A stretch of 64,000 nucleotides of DNA from a virus: IMG/VR virus record IMGVR_UViG_3300025849_002481, positions 11,721 through 75,720 of that record. One strand, given 5' to 3'. Position 1 is the first letter of the stretch. Every line of letters begins with the position of its first letter. This document shows positions 56,305-64,000 of this stretch, one piece after another. Made by a program: the position numbers and the translations under genes. The notes below the pieces were generated by a model. That model saw only the letters and a list, made by a program, of their open reading frames with translations. It did no database searches and was not told where the DNA came from.

Positions 56305-56410
56305 TGTGTGCCCTTGCTTTGTTAATATACTTACTATTATAAGGTCACTTTGGGTGTGTGTCAACCTTTTATTTGCCAAAATCGTAAATTAATTTCCACC
56401 GGCTGTAGTC

Positions 56411-56537
56411 AAAAGAAAGCCCAGGAGTGTTTGGACGAGGGCACATCCTACTCCTGGGCGCATGTGTAAGCAAGCTTCTTAGAGGGCTGAGGGGCGCCTG
56501 CTGTACACTTTTAAGCACTGTGTGGTCGCTGAGGGCA
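56411..56537 (-). ncRNA. Putative structured 3'-UTR / small RNA with GCCCUC loops, ending in a terminator
   Basis: Two hairpins whose G-U pairs work only on the minus strand; loops GCCCCUCAGCCCUC and UGCCCU; U-tract at 56411-56418. Confidence 0.55.
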
Positions 56538-57536
56538 TTAGCGATTCTGCATCACAGTGTTTTCTGCCATAGCTTCCCAACGTTGTGGAAATGCTACAGC
56601 AAGCTCGGCAACTTTAAGTACTGTTCTCAATGACAGCTCACGTAGTTGCTTCTTATTAATATCAACGAAATCCATTACGTCTTCTTTGACATCATCTGAA
56701 AGTTTGTAGCTATCAAGCATGCCGTCTTGTACAACTTGCTTGATGCGCAACATCTTGTCCTTCTCACTCTTGATTGTGAGATCCATGTAGTGACAACGAC
56801 TCTCTAGTGCTTCCAAGTGCGAACGCAACTTCTTGCTCTTTACATCACGGAAGTCTAGGTTGGTAATAAAGATTGCACTACCTTTGAACTCGAAGCTGTC
56901 CGGCACACCTTCATTACGCAACTTGAAGCTGTCTGTGTTCCAGTGGATTGTACGCTTCTTCTTAGAGTCTAGTGCAGCTTTTAAAATATTAAGTGCAAGA
57001 GGCTCTTCGAACACAGCATCACAGTCATCGAACACAAGTACATTGTCTTGGTCTTTGAAGTTGAACAGTTTACAGTAGAGTCCGATTGGGCTCATAGCAC
57101 CTTTGACAACTTCATACTTCTGTCCACCACCTAGTGCGGCAACAGTGTCGTATCTGTCAAGTACTTCTTCTACACCATGTGACTTACCAACTCCTGGAGG
57201 ACCTGATACGATCATAGCACTTACAACACCCTTCTTGACAGCTTTGGTCATATCTTTCAACATGTCAAAGCGTTCACGGATGCGTTCTACAATCTCTTCA
57301 TCTGTTTCGGTTACAGTGTTTACTTTGGCTCCGGCAGCTTCATAAGCTGATGTGCCATCACACATGATCTTAATGTTACGCTCTGGAAAGCCTGGAACGG
57401 CTCTGCCATCTACTGTTACGTAGCCACCCTTGGCGCCTACTTTAAATTCTTGTACAAGTGGAAACACCATACCAGCTAGGTCGACGTCATTGCCTCTAAT
57501 CTTGTATGTGCCTTCTTTGATTCTAATGTTTGTCAT
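56538..57536 (-). CDS. AAA+/P-loop ATPase
   Basis: GPPGVGKS, VFDDCD, LKAALD, FITN, ALESRC. Confidence 0.85.
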   Translation of the reverse strand: MTNIRIKEGTYKIRGNDVDLAGMVFPLVQEFKVGAKGGYVTVDGRAVPGFPERNIKIMCDGTSAYEAAGAKVNTVTETDEEIVERIRERFDMLKDMTKAVKKGVVSAMIVSGPPGVGKSHGVEEVLDRYDTVAALGGGQKYEVVKGAMSPIGLYCKLFNFKDQDNVLVFDDCDAVFEEPLALNILKAALDSKKKRTIHWNTDSFKLRNEGVPDSFEFKGSAIFITNLDFRDVKSKKLRSHLEALESRCHYMDLTIKSEKDKMLRIKQVVQDGMLDSYKLSDDVKEDVMDFVDINKKQLRELSLRTVLKVAELAVAFPQRWEAMAENTVMQNR

Positions 57537-57588
57537 ATTGTTTGCCCTTCAGTTATTTAATTAATGCCTAATTATTAAACTTAGTATA

Positions 57589-57864
57589 CTACGACATCTG
57601 TGGAATGTCAATCTCTTTTTTAACAAACCGAGCAATTAAATTCATGTCCTCGGCTGTAAAGTCCTTTTCTAATTTAGGACCAAACGCATTGCCCAACTTG
57701 GTTAGCATAGAACCTACGTGGCTCATATCGTTCAAGAGTTTGAAGTCTTCGTCCTTCATGCCCTTACAGTTTGCGTATTCGCTCATGTCGCACATCTTGC
57801 GGCCAATCGATGCCAGTTGTTTGTGCTGTGCGCTTACTTCATAAATTGATGTGTTGTTTTTCAT
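57589..57864 (-). CDS. Early hypothetical protein
   Basis: Own promoter and GAGGGCA leader. Confidence 0.75.
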   Translation of the reverse strand: MKNNTSIYEVSAQHKQLASIGRKMCDMSEYANCKGMKDEDFKLLNDMSHVGSMLTKLGNAFGPKLEKDFTAEDMNLIARFVKKEIDIPQMS

Positions 57865-57940
57865 AGTGCCCTCATTTCCTAATTGTTATATACATTATAC
57901 GATCATTAAGAGTGTTTGTCAACCCCTAATTTGCCAAAAA

Positions 57941-58141
57941 TTAATCTAAATCGCAAACCCAACCGCCGGCTGTACCTTCGTACTCTGCAACCAATGTGCC
58001 ACCTAGTCCGAACGGTGAAGCAATCTCTGCAACTGGTTTGCCGGTGTGTTCACATATGCCCTGACCTAGCAGCTCAACCTTCTTAAAGCCTTCGTCTGTG
58101 CCAAAGCCACGGTTTACAAAGTGTACGTTCAGTTCTTGCAT
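57941..58141 (-). CDS. Early hypothetical protein
   Basis: Own promoter and GAGGGCA leader. Confidence 0.75.
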   Translation of the reverse strand: MQELNVHFVNRGFGTDEGFKKVELLGQGICEHTGKPVAEIASPFGLGGTLVAEYEGTAGGWVCDLD

Positions 58142-58208
58142 GTGTTGCCCTCTTGCTTAACTTATATATACACTATAGCACAGGTGCGCTATAGTGTCAA
58201 CCTTTTTT

Positions 58209-58550
58209 TTACATACTCCAATATGATTCTGATGATGGGCTCATATAGCCCGGAGTGTTCACAGTCTCTGTGATTGGCTTTTCTTTAGCTTCGTCCATGA
58301 TGCTATATACAGTCCGACTCTTCTCTATGTTCTTGTGGAAGTATGCCGCTTCTGCTATACCATAACGGAACATAGGATCGTTCACACTGTCTAGCAAGTC
58401 TGCTCTATAACGTTTGCTCATGCGTGTGAGTGCCGCTTTGGCCGCAGGCATTGTTTTATAGCTCTGGCGGTGATCAGGACGAACTACACCGTCCCGCTTG
58501 TTGAGCTTGCCCATGATGTAAGTTGATGATTTTTCGTAAATGTAAAACAT
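58209..58550 (-). CDS. Early hypothetical protein
   Basis: AAKAALTR and NTP...SPSSESYWSM motifs; own promoter. Confidence 0.75.
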   Translation of the reverse strand: MFYIYEKSSTYIMGKLNKRDGVVRPDHRQSYKTMPAAKAALTRMSKRYRADLLDSVNDPMFRYGIAEAAYFHKNIEKSRTVYSIMDEAKEKPITETVNTPGYMSPSSESYWSM

Positions 58551-58621
58551 TGATTGCCCTCTTTGTTTTTAAGTTTGTATATACACTATAGCACATAAAT
58601 GCTATAGTGTCAACCTTTTTT

Positions 58622-59014
58622 TTAACTTTTATACATACGCAAATCTAAATCCGCTCCGTCGTAATCGTGTGCATCTACTTGCTTGTAGTAAAAATCTAGT
58701 ATGTCGTGCTTTTTACAGTAATCAAAAAAGTGTTCGCTTATTCCTTCGTTAATACAATCATCATCGTATCTGTAATCTATTGCAGTTGCAAAAGCAGTAG
58801 CAAGCGTTTTATCTTTGCGTGTAAAATAGTTTTCTAATAGTTGTGTAGTTTGTACACACAATTCTTCTGTTGCACTAATCCAATCGTACACATTTTCCAT
58901 ACCGTGTTCTTCGCAAGCAAAATCTTCCGCACTTACAAGTTCAACTTTATAATTCATAGTGTGTGTTAAAAAATTACATAAATGTTTTAATTCACGTGTA
59001 GTAATGTTTTGCAT
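58622..59014 (-). CDS. Early hypothetical protein
   Basis: Start MQNITT at 59014 after GAGGGCA. Confidence 0.75.
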   Translation of the reverse strand: MQNITTRELKHLCNFLTHTMNYKVELVSAEDFACEEHGMENVYDWISATEELCVQTTQLLENYFTRKDKTLATAFATAIDYRYDDDCINEGISEHFFDYCKKHDILDFYYKQVDAHDYDGADLDLRMYKS

Positions 59015-59096
59015 ATTGCCCTCATGCTTTGTTATTATTATAGTTACACTATAGCACAAGTGCGCTATAGTGTCAACCTTTTTTTTACCAAAAAGT

Positions 59097-59369
59097 TTAA
59101 CTTTCGTATTTTACACCTACTAAACGCAAGTAGCGTCCTCCAAATGTAGTATGCACTTTATCACATCCTACTAGCAACTTTAACCATTTACAGTCACCTT
59201 CTGTAAAACGTTCTCCTACAATTCCAAAACACAAGTTGCGTTTGTCTGCAACTTTTGCATTGTCTTTCCAAACAACGTTAGTCCAACTGTTCCAAAAACT
59301 AGCATCCTTTTCTGCTAGTACTGTTGCAACAAGTTTACGTGCTTGTAGTGTGTTTAGTTTATTTTGCAT
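59097..59369 (-). CDS. Early hypothetical protein
   Basis: GAGGGC leader, TTGCAT-17-TATATT promoter. Confidence 0.7.
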   Translation of the reverse strand: MQNKLNTLQARKLVATVLAEKDASFWNSWTNVVWKDNAKVADKRNLCFGIVGERFTEGDCKWLKLLVGCDKVHTTFGGRYLRLVGVKYES

Positions 59370-59477
59370 TTAAAGCCCTCCAAATGCTGTTACGTTATAA
59401 TTTAATATAGCACCGGTTTGCGCATAATGCAACCATTTTTTTAGTTTGTTACGTTACGTTATTTGGATAAAAAGAGG

Positions 59478-59507
59478 TTGACAACCCCGGCTGTTGTGTG
59501 TTATAAT
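59478..59507 (+). promoter_or_regulatory. Plus-strand sigma70 promoter facing the tRNA cluster
   Basis: TTGACA-18-TATAAT with an extended -10 TG. Confidence 0.65.
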
Positions 59508-59597
59508 GGATTGATGCCCGAAGGTTCTGGACCGGCTGTACCTACTTCGGTTCGGAAGGGTCTTACTGTGAGGGCGGCATGCCCTTCCGAACGTATT

Positions 59598-59684
59598 TGG
59601 TGCTCGCACCCGGACTCGAACCGGGACGCCGTAATCAGCGACAGATTTTAAGTCTGTTGTGTCTACCTATTCCACCATGCGAGC
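59598..59684 (-). tRNA. tRNA-Leu(UAA)
   Basis: Cloverleaf; anticodon arm ACAGA-CTTAAAA-TCTGT, long variable arm, GGTTCGAGTCC, encoded CCA. Confidence 0.95.
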
Positions 59685-59689
59685 GGTGT

Positions 59690-59766
59690 TGGCCTGCCCT
59701 GCAGGATTCGAACCTGCGACCCACAGCTTAGAAGGCTGTTGCTCTATCCAGCTGAGCTAAGGGCAG
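59690..59766 (-). tRNA. tRNA-Arg(UCU)
   Basis: Anticodon arm ACAGC-CTTCTAA-GCTGT, GGTTCGAATCC, CCA. Confidence 0.95.
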
Positions 59767-59768
59767 TC

Positions 59769-59845
59769 TGGTACGCCTGGAGGGACTTGAACCCCCAACC
59801 TGCGGATTATGAGTCCGACGCTCTAACCAATTGAGCTACAGGCGC
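59769..59845 (-). tRNA. tRNA with CAU anticodon, probably Ile2 (lysidine) rather than Met
   Basis: CGGA-CTCATAA-TCCG arm, CCA. Acceptor stem has C4-G69 and C5-G68 (TilS determinants in E. coli); no initiator GGG/CCC stem. Confidence 0.85.
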
Positions 59846-59974
59846 AAAACTTTATTTCTAGTTGGGTGTTAAGATGATCCTCTTCTATCTTACAAAATGA
59901 TTTCCAATGAGCCCCACCGCTCTCAATTGGATCGTCACCGGCTGTCACGGTCACGCCCTAGGTTGTAGAGTTGC

Positions 59975-60304
59975 CTACGCTGTGATTATGTCCTCGGACT
60001 CAGCGGTAATCGGCTGTACCTCTACTTTCGTTGTTTCGCTCTGCTCCGGCTGTGCCTTCACATTTCTTACAACAAACTCTGCAATCGCACTCTGTTGAGC
60101 TTCGCTTTGGAAGTTCGGGTGTGCCATTAATACTTTACAGACATCTGCTTTTGACATTTTTTCGCCAAGTTCGATCAACTCAATGTCGTCGTGTCCGTTC
60201 TTAGCTAAGATCTTGAACCTACCTACATAGTCATTCGCGAACCTTACCTTGGTCACTCCGTTGTGTGTTGATGTTCCTGCTACTTCAAAAGTTTTAGTTG
60301 TCAT
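59975..60304 (-). CDS. Early hypothetical protein
   Basis: VAGTS...G..KVRFAND motif; own promoter. Confidence 0.75.
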   Translation of the reverse strand: MTTKTFEVAGTSTHNGVTKVRFANDYVGRFKILAKNGHDDIELIELGEKMSKADVCKVLMAHPNFQSEAQQSAIAEFVVRNVKAQPEQSETTKVEVQPITAESEDIITA

Positions 60305-60374
60305 ATTTGCCTCTCATTGTTTTAGTTTATATTATACATTATAGCACCAATTGCCACAATGGTCAACCTTTTTT

Positions 60375-60842
60375 TTAACTATTTTGGCTAGCCGCAATCC
60401 GTGCTTCCATAGCCGCTAGTTCGATTGGAACCATAACGTCTAAGAAGTTAAAGATTGGATAACCGTTTTCGTCTTTGGCACCGTGATCGTTAACTAACCA
60501 CTCTTTGCCATTCCAAAGGTAGGCATACTCTTCCATGTCATCAATCCAACTTGGAATGTCTGCATACTCTTGAATGCTCAGCTGCTCGCCTCGGTCTCGG
60601 CTGTAAAACAATGTCCAATCGTCTCGTTGTGTCGAACGATCGTCAAAGTCTTGTGGATCACCAATCTGCTCACCTAGTGAACTGATTGAACCTAGTGCAA
60701 CCAACGCTTCGATCTTATCGATGTCCGTGTAGTTCTCCAACAGGATCTTTCCGTTGTTTGCGACATAGCCGTCCCAGTGACAGTATACTGAAACAATCTT
60801 GCCTTCTTTGGTCTTCATTGCGATGTTTGAACGTGTTGCCAT
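60375..60842 (-). CDS. Early hypothetical protein
   Basis: MATRS.I...SVYCHWDGY and EEYAYL motifs; own promoter. Confidence 0.75.
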   Translation of the reverse strand: MATRSNIAMKTKEGKIVSVYCHWDGYVANNGKILLENYTDIDKIEALVALGSISSLGEQIGDPQDFDDRSTQRDDWTLFYSRDRGEQLSIQEYADIPSWIDDMEEYAYLWNGKEWLVNDHGAKDENGYPIFNFLDVMVPIELAAMEARIAASQNS

Positions 60843-60912
60843 TTTGTTTGCCCTCTAGCGTTTGTTTAACTTACTCTTATAATATAGCACCAAAGTGCTC
60901 AGTTGTCAACCC

Positions 60913-61116
60913 CTAATTTACCGAAACTTGATATCCATATTGCCAATGGCCGTTGTCTAGATCAAACACACAACGATCCTTGTCATCTACATAGACCTTA
61001 TCCATGTCTATGCCATACTTGTCGCCGGCTGTAGCACATAGCTCAATGCCTTTTACCTTAGCTTCACCAAACCGGCTGTTGACCTTAGTTCCTATTTTAA
61101 TATATGTTCTGCTCAT
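60913..61116 (-). CDS. Early hypothetical protein
   Basis: Own promoter and GAGGGCA leader; LDNGHW.YG.Q. Confidence 0.75.
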   Translation of the reverse strand: MSRTYIKIGTKVNSRFGEAKVKGIELCATAGDKYGIDMDKVYVDDKDRCVFDLDNGHWQYGYQVSVN

Positions 61117-61177
61117 AGTGCCCTCATTTCCTAATTGTTATATACAGTATAGCTTCAAGTGATCGAGATGTCAACCT

Positions 61178-61756
61178 TTATTTTGCCAATTCTCGTTCTT
61201 TTTCTTCTTCCATTTCCTCTTCGATCCATTCACGCCTATTCTCAATAAGCTCAAACTCGTCGTCAAGTTTCTGGAATAGCTCTGGAGTGTCTTCAAGAGC
61301 ACAAGTGCCTTTGACTACCGCTTCGCACCATTCGCTCAGGCCTTCCATATATTGATCATCGCCATCTGTGTAGATACCTGCAAAGTCCATACCACCTTCT
61401 TCATAGGTTGCCTCAATCGAACAGTTGTCCATATCGTCTAACCAGGTGTTGTATGCTTCAATGGGAGGTGCCCACGCACTATCAAACCAACCTGTGATAT
61501 GACTTGTGCCATCTTTGTTGTCCACATACTCTAGACCTTCGTCTGAGATGTCCCACTTGGTCCCCCAGTTGCTAACATGCCAGTCATACCAGTTCGGACC
61601 ATCACTAGGAGCGGTTGTGCCTTCTAGTTCTTTGGGCATCGGAACCATTGCATCAAGTAGAGCAAAGTCCTCTCCATCATGTGCATCATCCCACAGTTGC
61701 TTGATTGTGTCTGTTGGACCACTAATTGTGATTGAGTTCGAACACCAATTAGGCAT
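61178..61756 (-). CDS. DUF1281/YubB-like ferredoxin-fold protein
   Basis: MPNWCSN, WY.W...NWGTKWD, FDSAWAPP, YEE.G..FAG. Confidence 0.75.
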   Translation of the reverse strand: MPNWCSNSITISGPTDTIKQLWDDAHDGEDFALLDAMVPMPKELEGTTAPSDGPNWYDWHVSNWGTKWDISDEGLEYVDNKDGTSHITGWFDSAWAPPIEAYNTWLDDMDNCSIEATYEEGGMDFAGIYTDGDDQYMEGLSEWCEAVVKGTCALEDTPELFQKLDDEFELIENRREWIEEEMEEEKERELAK

Positions 61757-61925
61757 AGTCAGTCTCCTCTAAAAAACGTGGTGAAAGTTCATTGCAATCA
61801 AGCATATCTTCGACATCATCTGTGCTCATATACTTGAGTGCCATAGTCAGCATATCTTCGGCTGTGACGAAACCGTCGTCGATCAGCTCTAGTGCTGTGT
61901 CTCTTGCGTTAGTTGGTCTTTTCAT
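61749..61925 (-). CDS. 58-aa early protein (not in ORF track)
   Basis: MKRPTNARDTALELIDDG...FLEETDYA; own promoter, GAGGGCA leader, overlaps the next start. Confidence 0.7.
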   Translation of the reverse strand: MKRPTNARDTALELIDDGFVTAEDMLTMALKYMSTDDVEDMLDCNELSPRFLEETDYA

Positions 61926-61990
61926 ATTGCCCTCATTTCCTAATTGTTATATACAGTATAGCGTCAATTGATCCAGTTGTCAACCTCTTT

Positions 61991-62206
61991 TTAACCAATT
62001 TCCTCTACTTCGCGACCTTGTGCAAAGTCCATCAAGTCTGCGGCCAATGCCGCGGCCTGTGCTCGTGTCAATTGCAAGTGATCAAAGAACTCTGTGCCTA
62101 CAGGTCGCTCTTTACGCATTGTAACCTGGACGCTGGTGCCTTGACCGCCGTTTGCGAAACGGGTTAATGAAACGCCTTGTGCGTGTGATTTCAAATCTGT
62201 TGACAT
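61991..62206 (-). CDS. Early hypothetical protein
   Basis: Own promoter, GAGGAG SD. Confidence 0.75.
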   Translation of the reverse strand: MSTDLKSHAQGVSLTRFANGGQGTSVQVTMRKERPVGTEFFDHLQLTRAQAAALAADLMDFAQGREVEEIG

Positions 62207-62279
62207 CTGTGTCTCCTCTTTGCCCTAATTGTTATATACAGTATAGCACCTAGATGCTACACTGTCAACCTCTTTTTGC

Positions 62280-62621
62280 TCAAAAGTCCTGTGGATAACC
62301 TTTGGAACGCATCTCCGGCTGTAGGGGTGATACCACGATGACCTGCTCTTTGAGGAAGTCACGATAGTCCTCATCCTCCGGCAGTTGTTCGATCCACTCT
62401 TGCTCAGTGAGGAACTCTGTGGGGAACTCCTTGCAGCTGATGTTGTTCTCCATAGTGATCGCAGCTACGAACGCGGCCGCATCCTGCACTCGATCCAAAC
62501 CCTGGACCAAGTATTCTGAACCGCCTTTGAACTTCCAATAGGCGTTGCCTGATGAAAACTTACCGTCCTCACAGTGTGCGCCATAGTTCTCTAAAAATTG
62601 TGTTTTGATTACGAAATTCAT
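62280..62621 (-). CDS. Early hypothetical protein
   Basis: TQ..ENYGAH...YWKFKGG motif; own promoter. Confidence 0.75.
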   Translation of the reverse strand: MNFVIKTQFLENYGAHCEDGKFSSGNAYWKFKGGSEYLVQGLDRVQDAAAFVAAITMENNISCKEFPTEFLTEQEWIEQLPEDEDYRDFLKEQVIVVSPLQPEMRSKGYPQDF

Positions 62622-62683
62622 ATTGCCCTCTTTTCCCTAACTGTTATATACAGTATACCTTCAAAACCGGCTGCTGTCAACCT

Positions 62684-62911
62684 CTAATTTACCAAAAAGT
62701 CCTCGTCAACGATGAAACTGTATACGGCCTCCCTAACGGCTGTATCGGTTGCTTCTTCGTAACCGTCGGCTGTAGCCAGCTTCTCCAATTCACGAACGGT
62801 CCATGCCCAAGCACTTTCAGCACCATCTTCGGCTGTTAACTGTAGACCGGCTGTGGCGATCCGTGTGACCAATTCATTGCCCTCGGCTGTGAACATTGCG
62901 AAATCTTTCAT
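62684..62911 (-). CDS. Early hypothetical protein (first gene of the array)
   Basis: MFT.EGN...EATDTAVRE motif; own promoter. Confidence 0.75.
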   Translation of the reverse strand: MKDFAMFTAEGNELVTRIATAGLQLTAEDGAESAWAWTVRELEKLATADGYEEATDTAVREAVYSFIVDEDFLVN

Positions 62912-63018
62912 ATCGTGCCCTCCTAATCTCTAACTGTTATATACAGTATAGCCTCAAACCTCGGCTGTGTCAACCTTTATTTTACCAAAATGTGAAAAAA
63001 GTTTCCTCCGGCTGTAGA

Positions 63019-63046
63019 ATTTAACATAATAAACTTTATACGCAAA
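63019..63046 (-). other. dif-like XerC/XerD recombination site 1
   Basis: TTTGCGTATAA-AGTTTA-TTATGTTAAAT; XerD arm 11/11 and XerC arm 8/11 versus E. coli dif. Confidence 0.85.
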
Positions 63047-63092
63047 ACCTTCGGCTGTAGGGGCTAAGTCATTGAAATCATTGATCAAAAGA

Positions 63093-63120
63093 ATTTAACA
63101 TAATAAACCTTATACGCACA
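63093..63120 (-). other. dif-like XerC/XerD recombination site 2
   Basis: TGTGCGTATAA-GGTTTA-TTATGTTAAAT; XerD arm 11/11 and XerC arm 9/11. Confidence 0.85.
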
Positions 63121-63401
63121 CCAAGTCCTGCCCACCACCGGCTGTTATTATACAGTCTCTCTCCCCTAGTGTCAACCGTTCTTTTGCACCGATCACAAAA
63201 GAATCTGAATCCTCAATAGAATCAACAGCTTACAGTTCGAATGAGCAAAAGAACAGTTCTCTTCCTCGCTTATACCAAAAACTTCAATGATATCAATAGC
63301 TTAGGATTTACAGCCGGGGCCCCATGTAACCTCTTGAAAACAAAGAGAAAATCAAAAACCCAATACAAACAATGACTTAGAAGACCACCTTGATTCGCTG
63401 C

Positions 63402-63625
63402 AGTGAGAGAGTGAAAAATTCAAAATGACCCCTGATCTGCTGCAGTGAAAGGTTCAAAGTGAGCATAACAGTGAGTTCGAAAGTGAAAGTGACAGTGAGA
63501 ACCATAGTGACTCGTACAGTGAGAACCATGAACCCCTCTTAGAGCTATACAGTGAGTAAGGAGTCTCTTGTTATAGTGTAGTGAGTATAGTGTACAGTGG
63601 GGTACAGTGAGGGGCCGAAGGCCCC
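63402..63625 (+). repeat. AGTGA iteron-like repeats ending in a GC hairpin
   Basis: 13 AGTGA copies, six in exact 12-bp phase (63458-63518); GGGGCC-GAA-GGCCCC at 63611-63625. Confidence 0.75.
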
Positions 63626-64000
63626 AGAATCTCCAATGATTTCAATGGTTTACACCATTAAGTTAAGGTACTGAACCATGCTTTAAGGGTGTTTTAAGGG
63701 TGGCGGAATAGGTGTACAATACTGGTTGGTGTACATTTTTCGGCACATGCCCTACAGTTTACCCACGATCTATAGCCAAAAAAATTTTTCTTGAGCACGG
63801 TGACGAGAGGCATAGTTCAAATACTTTTCATAGTTGTTTTCATAGTTGTATAACCTACCCAATCACCATTCTATATAGTGTAGTTTCAACGACTTCTATG
63901 CTAGACTTACTCTGTGTATAGCCGAGATCTCTACTAGGTTCTAGAGGTCAAACACCCAGGTGACCGCAGCGGGGCCTAGGGTCTACGCAGCTAACCACAC

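Follow-up and report, generated by a model that had tools for sequence, protein, structure and literature searches.

Two tandem sites of the XerC/XerD type, with a candidate IHF site between them, stand just upstream of the early genes of a lytic-type marine jumbo phage, and the sequence comparisons made here strongly support the view that both are real sites of their kind, kept by selection. Filamentous phages, genomic islands and plasmids are known to exploit the host Xer machinery, whereas virulent tailed phages are not; a search of the literature found no paper linking dif or Xer to virulent tailed phages or myoviruses, to the Vequintavirinae or to terminal repeats. Binding of XerC and XerD to the two sites is very likely, and the reading favoured here, albeit tentatively, is that host XerCD recombines copies of the phage genome, for circularisation or for the resolution of multimers, with IHF and the second site serving as architecture. 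The phased combination of two Xer sites and IHF recurs in a widespread clade of marine jumbo phages as well as in other uncultured large phages, and a related single site lies in the terminal repeats of cultured myoviruses of Escherichia coli, Salmonella and Erwinia. If XerCD acts on these genomes, the lytic cycle would include a host-dependent step, be it end joining, circularisation, multimer control or DNA docking, and the so far unexplained way in which 'virulent' jumbo phages persist in cultures might be accounted for. For the rV5-like phages, the question is directly testable in E. coli.

The window, i.e. the whole stretch of DNA that was analysed, makes up the final 64 kb of an IMG/VR record of 75.7 kb, which is estimated to be 21% complete. 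It comes from a marine phage related to the PA5oct jumbo myoviruses, with a large terminase that is 54% identical to that of Pseudomonas jumbo phage PA5oct, the closest match, followed by Rak2/BF-like jumbo phages. T4-type proteins include the tail sheath, terminase, helicases and baseplate proteins, and the label 'T4-like jumbo phage', which an initial annotation had given from the DNA letters alone, was roughly right for a record of this kinship and completeness. The early block (about 55.6-62.9 kb) consists of small genes and three tRNAs on the - strand, with a series of near-consensus sigma-70 promoters; Pfam and PHROGs searches on the neighbouring small early proteins returned nothing informative, and Rfam returned only tRNAs near the locus. 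The G+C content is 0.31-0.41 in the structural and replication part and 0.42-0.45 from about 52 kb on, through the early block, which may reflect a separate history of the early region or other constraints on it.

The pair of sites lies just upstream of the first early promoter, on the margin of a non-coding stretch, which continues at least as far as the end of the contig (Table 1). The earlier placement of the sites in non-coding DNA upstream of the first early gene is borne out by the ORF list and by the promoter at 62973-62945; no ORF of at least 45 aa runs over the pair, the overlaps being mechanical frames of 42-44 aa only. A further promoter, described earlier as lacking an ORF and proposed to fire across the pair, is likewise present and matches the consensus perfectly, yet it also occurs in L131, a relative that lacks the pair, and is therefore not specific to the module. 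In one RNA run (X16), contigs fall on the early genes and none over 63012-63767, a missing cover that is no evidence either way.

Table 1. Features of the window and of three cultured phages that carry a related site
Record	Feature	Position	Strand	Basis or remark
Window	Early region with polar 7-mer ACAGCCG	56400..63145	-	22 sense copies, 0 on the other strand
Window	First early ORF, 75 aa, no family match	62684..62911	-	Five in-frame ACAGCCG copies
Window	Sigma-70-type promoter of first early gene, TTGACA-17-TATACT	62945..62973	-	Promoter scan
Window	dif-like site 1 ('type A-like')	63019..63046	-	TTTGCGTATAA-AGTTTA-TTATGTTAAAT, XerC to XerD; orthologous sites in relatives
Window	IHF-like motif TAAGTCATTGAAA between the sites	63066..63078	-	One mismatch from YAANNNNTTGATW
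Window	dif-like site 2 ('type B')	63093..63120	-	TGTGCGTATAA-GGTTTA-TTATGTTAAAT; same 26-mer in relative L003/L161
Window	Promoter without an ORF, ahead of the dif pair	63147..63175	-	TTGACA-17-TATAAT, match 12/12
Window	Perfect IHF consensus TATCAATAGCTTA, XerC side of the pair	63291..63303	+	Sequence read; same 13-mer in L118
Window	CAGTGAG / TAGTGA iteron-like repeat array	63388..63610	+	TATAGTGA arrays at the same place in relatives
Window	Conserved element (..GAGAGGCATAGTTCAAATAC..)	63779..63830	+	Anchor for the orthologous non-coding DNA of about 15 relatives
Erwinia phage Hena1 (MN732867)	Single dif-like site	291-316 and 148614-148639		Inside the annotated 519-bp direct terminal repeat, both ends
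E. coli phage HdK5 (MK373780)	Single dif-like site	170-195 and 139039-139064		Second copy 290 bp from the right end
PVP-SE1 (GU070616)	Single dif-like site	117432-117457		2.2-kb gene-free region

The two 28-bp sites are direct repeats 74 bp apart and both have the 11-6-11 layout, reading on the + strand ATTTAACATAA-TAAACT-TTATACGCA (63019-63044) and ATTTAACATAA-TAAACC-TTATACGCA (63093-63118). A repeat search recovers them as a 29-nt direct repeat of 97% identity at the same distance, and the pattern ATTTAACATAA-N6-TTATRCGCA has exactly two matches in the 64 kb, against 0.00 expected from 100 shuffles. In both sites, the XerD arm TTATGTTAAAT agrees with the gammaproteobacterial consensus at 11/11 positions and the 9-mer of the XerC arm is TGCGTATAA, the outer two bases varying as they do among bacteria. 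The centres, AGTTTA and GGTTTA, are 6 bp long, non-canonical and one nucleotide apart. The architecture, spacing, perfect XerD arms, accompanying XerC arms and one-base difference between spacers had all been described in the initial annotation and were confirmed by the pattern scan, the repeat search and a reading of the sequence. Two independent marine metagenomes, of 2017 and 2024, contain an identical 406-nt unitig (62930-63335) that crosses both sites, which shows the arrangement to be real DNA as opposed to an assembly artefact or chimera; overall, the phage was detected in runs from 14 studies. A form with a 74-bp deletion, i.e. a single site, was not among the 15 joints listed, of 20, for four runs, a check made on contigs, from which rare variants would escape. 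Within IMG/VR, the 26-mer of site 2 is found in no other contig except relative L003, and megablast of the locus against cultured phages gave no match.

Relatives were fetched via the NrdC.10-like AAA ATPase of the early block (60 loci), a search that is blind to dif, and were then scanned with a tolerant dif pattern. L118, L121 and L161, whose ATPases are only 71-76% identical to that of the window, carry a tandem pair in the same orientation at the orthologous place, with perfect XerD arms in 6/6 cases; the initial annotation had made its proposal depend on the arms being conserved at this locus in related phages, and in these three they are. In these three, perfect DnaA boxes are clustered next to the sites or between them; none occurs in the window. 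About 14 other relatives that cover the same stretch, as located by the conserved element, have no dif-like site, and in the closest relative, L131 (ATPase 83%), both flanks are kept and the pair is replaced by a divergent promoter and a short conserved element. Given these absences, the pair is an accessory cassette, gained or lost within the clade, and one that is dispensable. A patchy distribution and absence from the closest relative would suit a neutral relic, either host terminus DNA that was captured or the scar of a small Xer-mobilised element; yet the XerD arm is perfect in 8/8 sites of four diverged phages that were retrieved independently, and the layout, the phasing and the IHF motif are conserved where the flanks have diverged beyond alignment, which makes a relic of either kind scarcely credible.

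A scan of metagenomes for two perfect XerD arms 71-99 bp apart yielded more than 120 contigs, 29 of which have XerC-like arms at both sites, and at least 13 of the latter share genes with the clade. Whereas invariance of the XerD arm among the scanned contigs follows by construction, the XerC arms, the IHF motif and the exact spacing lay outside the query. Compared side by side, at least 16 diverged clade modules have one plan: a Xer site, 18-19 or 29 bp, a central IHF consensus, 28, 38-39 or 49 bp (counted from the start of the IHF motif), and a second Xer site. The IHF consensus YAANNNNTTGATW is perfect in 8/16 clade modules, has one or two mismatches in the rest, and is also present in further contigs. 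In the window, the distance of the motif is 19 bp to site 1 and 27 bp to site 2, with a second, overlapping one-mismatch copy at 63075-63087; the IHF-like box that had been noticed between the sites thus gains weight from the perfect consensus found at the same position in relatives. Start-to-start spacings of 74-75, 84-86, 95-96 and 106 bp correspond to 7, 8, 9 and 10 helical turns (Rayleigh R = 0.94 at 10.5 bp; p < 1e-5 against a uniform 71-99 bp, with each distinct value counted once), and the extra turns are often, although not always, DnaA boxes (AGTTATCCACA). The centre is 6 bp long in 32/32 sites of 16 relatives, and the two centres of a pair always differ. One site per pair has an A-rich centre (AATATA, AAGTTA, AGTTTA), often with a ..ATAT left arm, and the other combines a ..ATAA left arm with a centre that varies and that, in L414 and L417, is the canonical TGTATA; the two kinds of site may come in either order. 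The window follows this plan throughout, with a spacing of 74 bp or seven turns, centres one nucleotide apart, a one-mismatch IHF motif and a position upstream of the early genes. What the first description had overlooked is that the pair is part of a phased Xer-IHF-Xer module and that this unit is missing from the closest relative.

Since the phasing is combined with an IHF motif in fixed register, two bound complexes must face each other. The grouping, in relatives, of sites for several host chromosome-maintenance proteins would also be in keeping with a decoy, in which the many copies of the phage genome soak up XerCD, together with DnaA in the relatives, and upset resolution, initiation or division. 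Titration would, however, need neither the phasing nor the centred IHF motif, the differing centres or the fixed orientation, and two sites per genome make a weak sink; in addition, chromosome dimers arise in a minority of cells only. All told, a decoy is improbable.

Modules on the same 74-75-bp Xer-IHF-Xer plan recur outside the clade, in viral or metagenomic contigs with which it has no genes in common, among them one of 238 kb. Uncultured viral contigs with such a 74-bp module are L344, L369, L372, L390, L422, L429, L450, L304, L314 and L318; they have two perfect XerD arms, a central IHF consensus and very different left arms (e.g. TTTTCTTATAA and TTGTTATATAA), which would mean that XerC is of another specificity in their hosts or that XerD alone is a constant partner. 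Crossover breakpoints at the centres were also considered, but the flanks are too diverged, and the only suggestive pair of modules, L414/L443, gives a gradual change and not a clean one.

From what is observed, namely site identity, conservation, phasing, the IHF consensus and the differing centres, we infer binding, folding and recombination, as well as a benefit to the phage, along the following lines. XerC/XerD and IHF would fold the module into a Xer site, an IHF U-turn and a Xer site, and such a fold of a direct repeat would bring the two sites into the antiparallel alignment of a tyrosine-recombinase synapse. One site would probably be the crossover, and the other, along with IHF, would be architectural, like the accessory sequences at cer/psi or res. 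The differing centres would keep the pair from excising the DNA between them, and exchange would instead occur between identical modules or sites on two genome copies or two ends, with no need for a phage recombinase. The outcome would be either the closing of a terminally repeated linear genome into a circle, as by Cre/lox in P1, or the cutting of circular multimers to monomers in an episomal or theta-replication stage.

Much of the evidence given above speaks for recombination by host XerCD, including XerD arms that match at 11/11 positions next to a XerC 9-mer from marine gammaproteobacterial chromosomal dif, pairs in three diverged relatives that were retrieved by a protein-anchored search blind to dif, and 16 modules with a shared layout, a phasing of 7-10 turns and a common IHF register. 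Centres that differ would bar self-deletion, and no 74-bp deletion form was seen. Additionally, no tyrosine recombinase (PF00589) was found in the 75.7-kb record or in the records of four relatives (31-275 kb), all of them partial genomes, nor did the same five partial records yield a XafT-like Xer activator (PF12375, DUF3653) or an FtsK-gamma domain (PF09397). The lack of a phage enzyme in partial records is suggestive only; with no phage recombinase found, any recombination would need the host enzyme. Several points count against this reading, among them that lytic phages package concatemers and would have no obvious benefit from dimer resolution unless there is an episomal stage, that L131 and about 14 other relatives do without the module, and that XerD-first exchange normally needs FtsK, while no gene for a XafT-like protein or FtsK-gamma was found. 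A role in resolution would leave the DnaA boxes within the relatives' modules unexplained, we know of no described Xer resolution site that is made of two core sites and IHF, and no recombination product was seen. Nor does the 39-kb terminal repeat of PA5oct (PMC7318152) take in a counterpart of the window's non-coding stretch. PA5oct has no dif-like site at up to three mismatches.

The chromosomal dif, which is the XerC/XerD/FtsK dimer-resolution site, has the same 28-bp 11-6-11 layout as the phage sites, the identical XerD arm TTATGTTAAAT and a XerC arm ending in ..TGCGTATAA. The latter is the chromosomal dif arm in 120 bacterial loci that were fetched, and natural dif sites with TGCGTATAA are those of many marine Gammaproteobacteria, including Halieaceae, Marinobacter, Glaciecola, Idiomarina and Psychrosphaera. 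Centres in these 120 loci are TGTATA in 67 and TATATA in 24, the rest being mostly non-canonical sites in Acinetobacter contigs or plasmids. Among the clade phages, the XerC arm alternates between TGCGTATAA and TGCGCATAA, both natural dif variants, and clade members with an arm other than TGCGTATAA use GGTGCGCATAA, the E. coli-type XerC arm; such switching between two natural forms would be as expected of an arm that tracks the host XerC, and it is in keeping with recombination by the host enzymes. The chromosomal dif differs from the phage module in being a single terminus copy at which FtsK-orienting sequences converge, as opposed to two tandem sites with IHF between them, and the polar CGGCTGT of the phage points at the pair from one side only.

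The centres of the phage sites avoid the chromosomal sequence in most clade members, and those of the window differ from TGTATA and TATATA at two or more of the six positions. These differences weigh against integration at the host dif, one of three uses that had been suggested for the sites, whereby the phage or a persistent form of it would enter via XerCD, as CTXphi, VGJphi and TLCphi do. Integration would account for dif-like sites in the company of no detectable integrase and for the canonical TGTATA centre in the type B sites of L414 and L417, and virulent jumbo phages have been reported to persist in cultures (bioRxiv 10.1101/2024.12.31.630880). Nevertheless, each of the 120 bacterial loci, a limited sampling, is a single site with no phage-host junction, the metagenome contigs at the locus have phage sequence on both sides, and in its gene content the phage is of the lytic T4/PA5oct type. 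Integration is, consequently, very improbable and the least supported of the three uses.

Integrative mobile elements exploiting Xer (IMEX), such as CTXphi, VGJphi, TLCphi and the gonococcal island, likewise have dif-like sites; they lack a recombinase of their own, and none was found in the partial records of the clade. CTXphi has two sites about 90 bp apart, and its end repeats are among the BLAST matches of the phage site. CTXphi uses inverted sites in the form of a folded single strand, whereas those of the window are direct repeats in double-stranded DNA, and whereas IMEX elements are small and integrative, the window belongs to a lytic-type myovirus of roughly 300 kb for which no integrated copy was seen. 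Integration at a host dif between two flanking sites, by which IMEX are defined, was not found in the loci and contigs sampled. Judged from its sequence, the phage element would work like a Xer-exploiting site while fitting the definition of neither a chromosomal dif nor an IMEX.

In cer of ColE1 and psi of pSC101, as would hold for the phage module, an extrachromosomal Xer core site is joined by adjacent architectural DNA that gives selectivity; at cer and psi, this selectivity comes from host accessory proteins and is FtsK-independent. The plasmid sites use PepA with ArgR or ArcA on about 180 bp, whereas in the phage their place would be taken, over 74-106 bp, by a candidate IHF site and a second full Xer site. 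Among the 72,556 plasmids of PLSDB, dif-like sites are single, with no tandem module, and plasmid sites of this type are known XerCD substrates, which adds to the case for recombination at the phage sites. The analogy with loxP and Cre of P1 is functional only, as there is no sequence relation and P1 encodes its own recombinase; loxP lies near the packaging start and serves both to turn terminally redundant DNA into circles and to resolve dimers.

A BLAST search with the site in 50,697 phage records gave matches in the non-coding DNA of many lytic myoviruses of 135-155 kb, including PVP-SE1, CR3/CR8/CR9, phiTE, CB7 and the rV5 group. Cultured Vequintavirinae, as seen in Hena1 and HdK5, have one site in each copy of a direct terminal repeat of roughly 0.5 kb, 170-290 bp from the physical end of the DNA, and in circularly permuted records the site is in a large gene-free region (Table 1). 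With sequences such as GGTGCGCATAA-TGGGTA-TTATGTTAAAT, the sites combine a perfect XerD arm and a good XerC arm with a non-canonical centre. Like the window phage, the Vequintavirinae are lytic myoviruses without an integrase and have their site in non-coding DNA, but they differ in having a single site, in belonging to an unrelated family and in infecting enterobacterial hosts; no central IHF site was seen in one stretch read by eye (HdK5). The dif-like site in the terminal repeats of Vequintavirinae appears to be undescribed, and its position is exactly that which circularisation by host XerCD would require.

Proximity to a physical DNA end also speaks for the main rival, a docking complex that acts without recombination, in which XerD/XerC, IHF and, in the relatives, DnaA would form a folded, catalytically blocked plug at the boundary of the early region. 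Such a plug might pause or anchor incoming DNA, as has been proposed for the injection-stop region of T5, might organise early transcription, or might stop or unload the host translocases FtsK or SMC/MukBEF. The left terminal repeat of T5 has an untranslated injection-stop (iss) region with DnaA boxes (Davison, bioRxiv 10.1101/866236). Like the iss, the module of the clade relatives, with its clusters of DnaA boxes, is a non-coding pad for host factors beside first-expressed genes that are transcribed away from it. Further points in favour of docking are the invariance of the XerD arm while left arms vary widely in the more distant modules, an IHF bend that would align the repeats antiparallel as in a synapse with differing centres that would block exchange, and DnaA boxes in phase within the relatives' modules. 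Docking explains these in-phase boxes and the T5-like layout better than recombination does. Conversely, a 6-bp centre and good XerC arms have been kept, which catalysis needs and plain docking of XerD does not; T5 has no dif-like site in its left terminal repeat, the window lacks the paired DnaA boxes of the iss that relatives match with clusters, and the module is absent in close relatives with the same early region. To our knowledge, moreover, every Xer site described so far on a mobile element is a recombination site. On balance, docking is possible but on the doubtful side. Still more doubtful is the wider proposal that a pre-bent, recombination-dead XerCD-IHF-XerCD complex, with DnaA in the relatives, serves several families of lytic phages as a physical signal at the edge of first-expressed or terminal DNA; if this were true, the complex would halt or anchor DNA on entry, or would block or unload FtsK or SMC-type complexes, and would constitute a non-recombinational use of Xer.

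The surroundings of the pair have several features of their own. The 7-mer ACAGCCG, which reads CGGCTGT on the + strand, had been described as flanking the sites; it does so, at 63009, 63052 and 63139, but it is not a site-specific flank, being a polar motif of the whole early region. Its 22:0 bias compares with about 0.3 copies expected, its density climbs towards the dif pair, and it occurs in non-coding DNA as well as in each of the three reading frames; L131 has a variant, GCAGCCG, at 21:0. The motif might be the target of an RNase specific for early mRNA or a phage-specific DNA signal. As a Chi- or KOPS-like motif of the host it was rejected, as CGGCTGT is not over-represented relative to a reversed control in five candidate host genomes, those of marine Gammaproteobacteria with the same dif arm. 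The early promoters are repeated cassettes of about 67 nt, each a promoter and a leader (62634-62700, 62927-62993 and more copies upstream), which increase the depth of unitigs in metagenomes and probably cause assemblies of the clade to break near the non-coding stretch. Many relatives stop 2-8 kb from the ATPase, but the cassettes break assemblies there, and contig ends were discarded as a sign of genome ends; two large contigs read straight through the non-coding stretch, and in L121, whose contig spans it, the far-side genes diverge from the stretch.

Arrays of CAGTGAG or TATAGTGA, with at least 10 short repeats at a period of 10-24 bp (about 3040-3260 in L121 and about 500-740 in L131), are a feature of every relative examined, whether or not it has the dif pair; they resemble the iterons of origins, partition sites or packaging sites. 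The element at 63779-63830 (..TTCTTGAGCACGGTGACGAGAGGCATAGTTCAAATAC..) is 82-100% conserved in about 15 otherwise diverged relatives and may be a promoter or a protein-binding site. The short conserved element GTTAGGGCTACTGAATTCCCCAAGTAGAAGACAAACACT, which takes the position of the dif pair in L131 (1040-1100) and is also found in L121 (3680-3745), lies downstream of a rightward sigma-70 promoter and is a candidate small RNA. L118 has an extra, lone XerD arm TTATGTTAAAT in opposite orientation between the sites of its pair (about 340-352), and L161 has a glutamine riboswitch (RF01739; 9946-9996) that scores 38.1 bits, above the gathering score.
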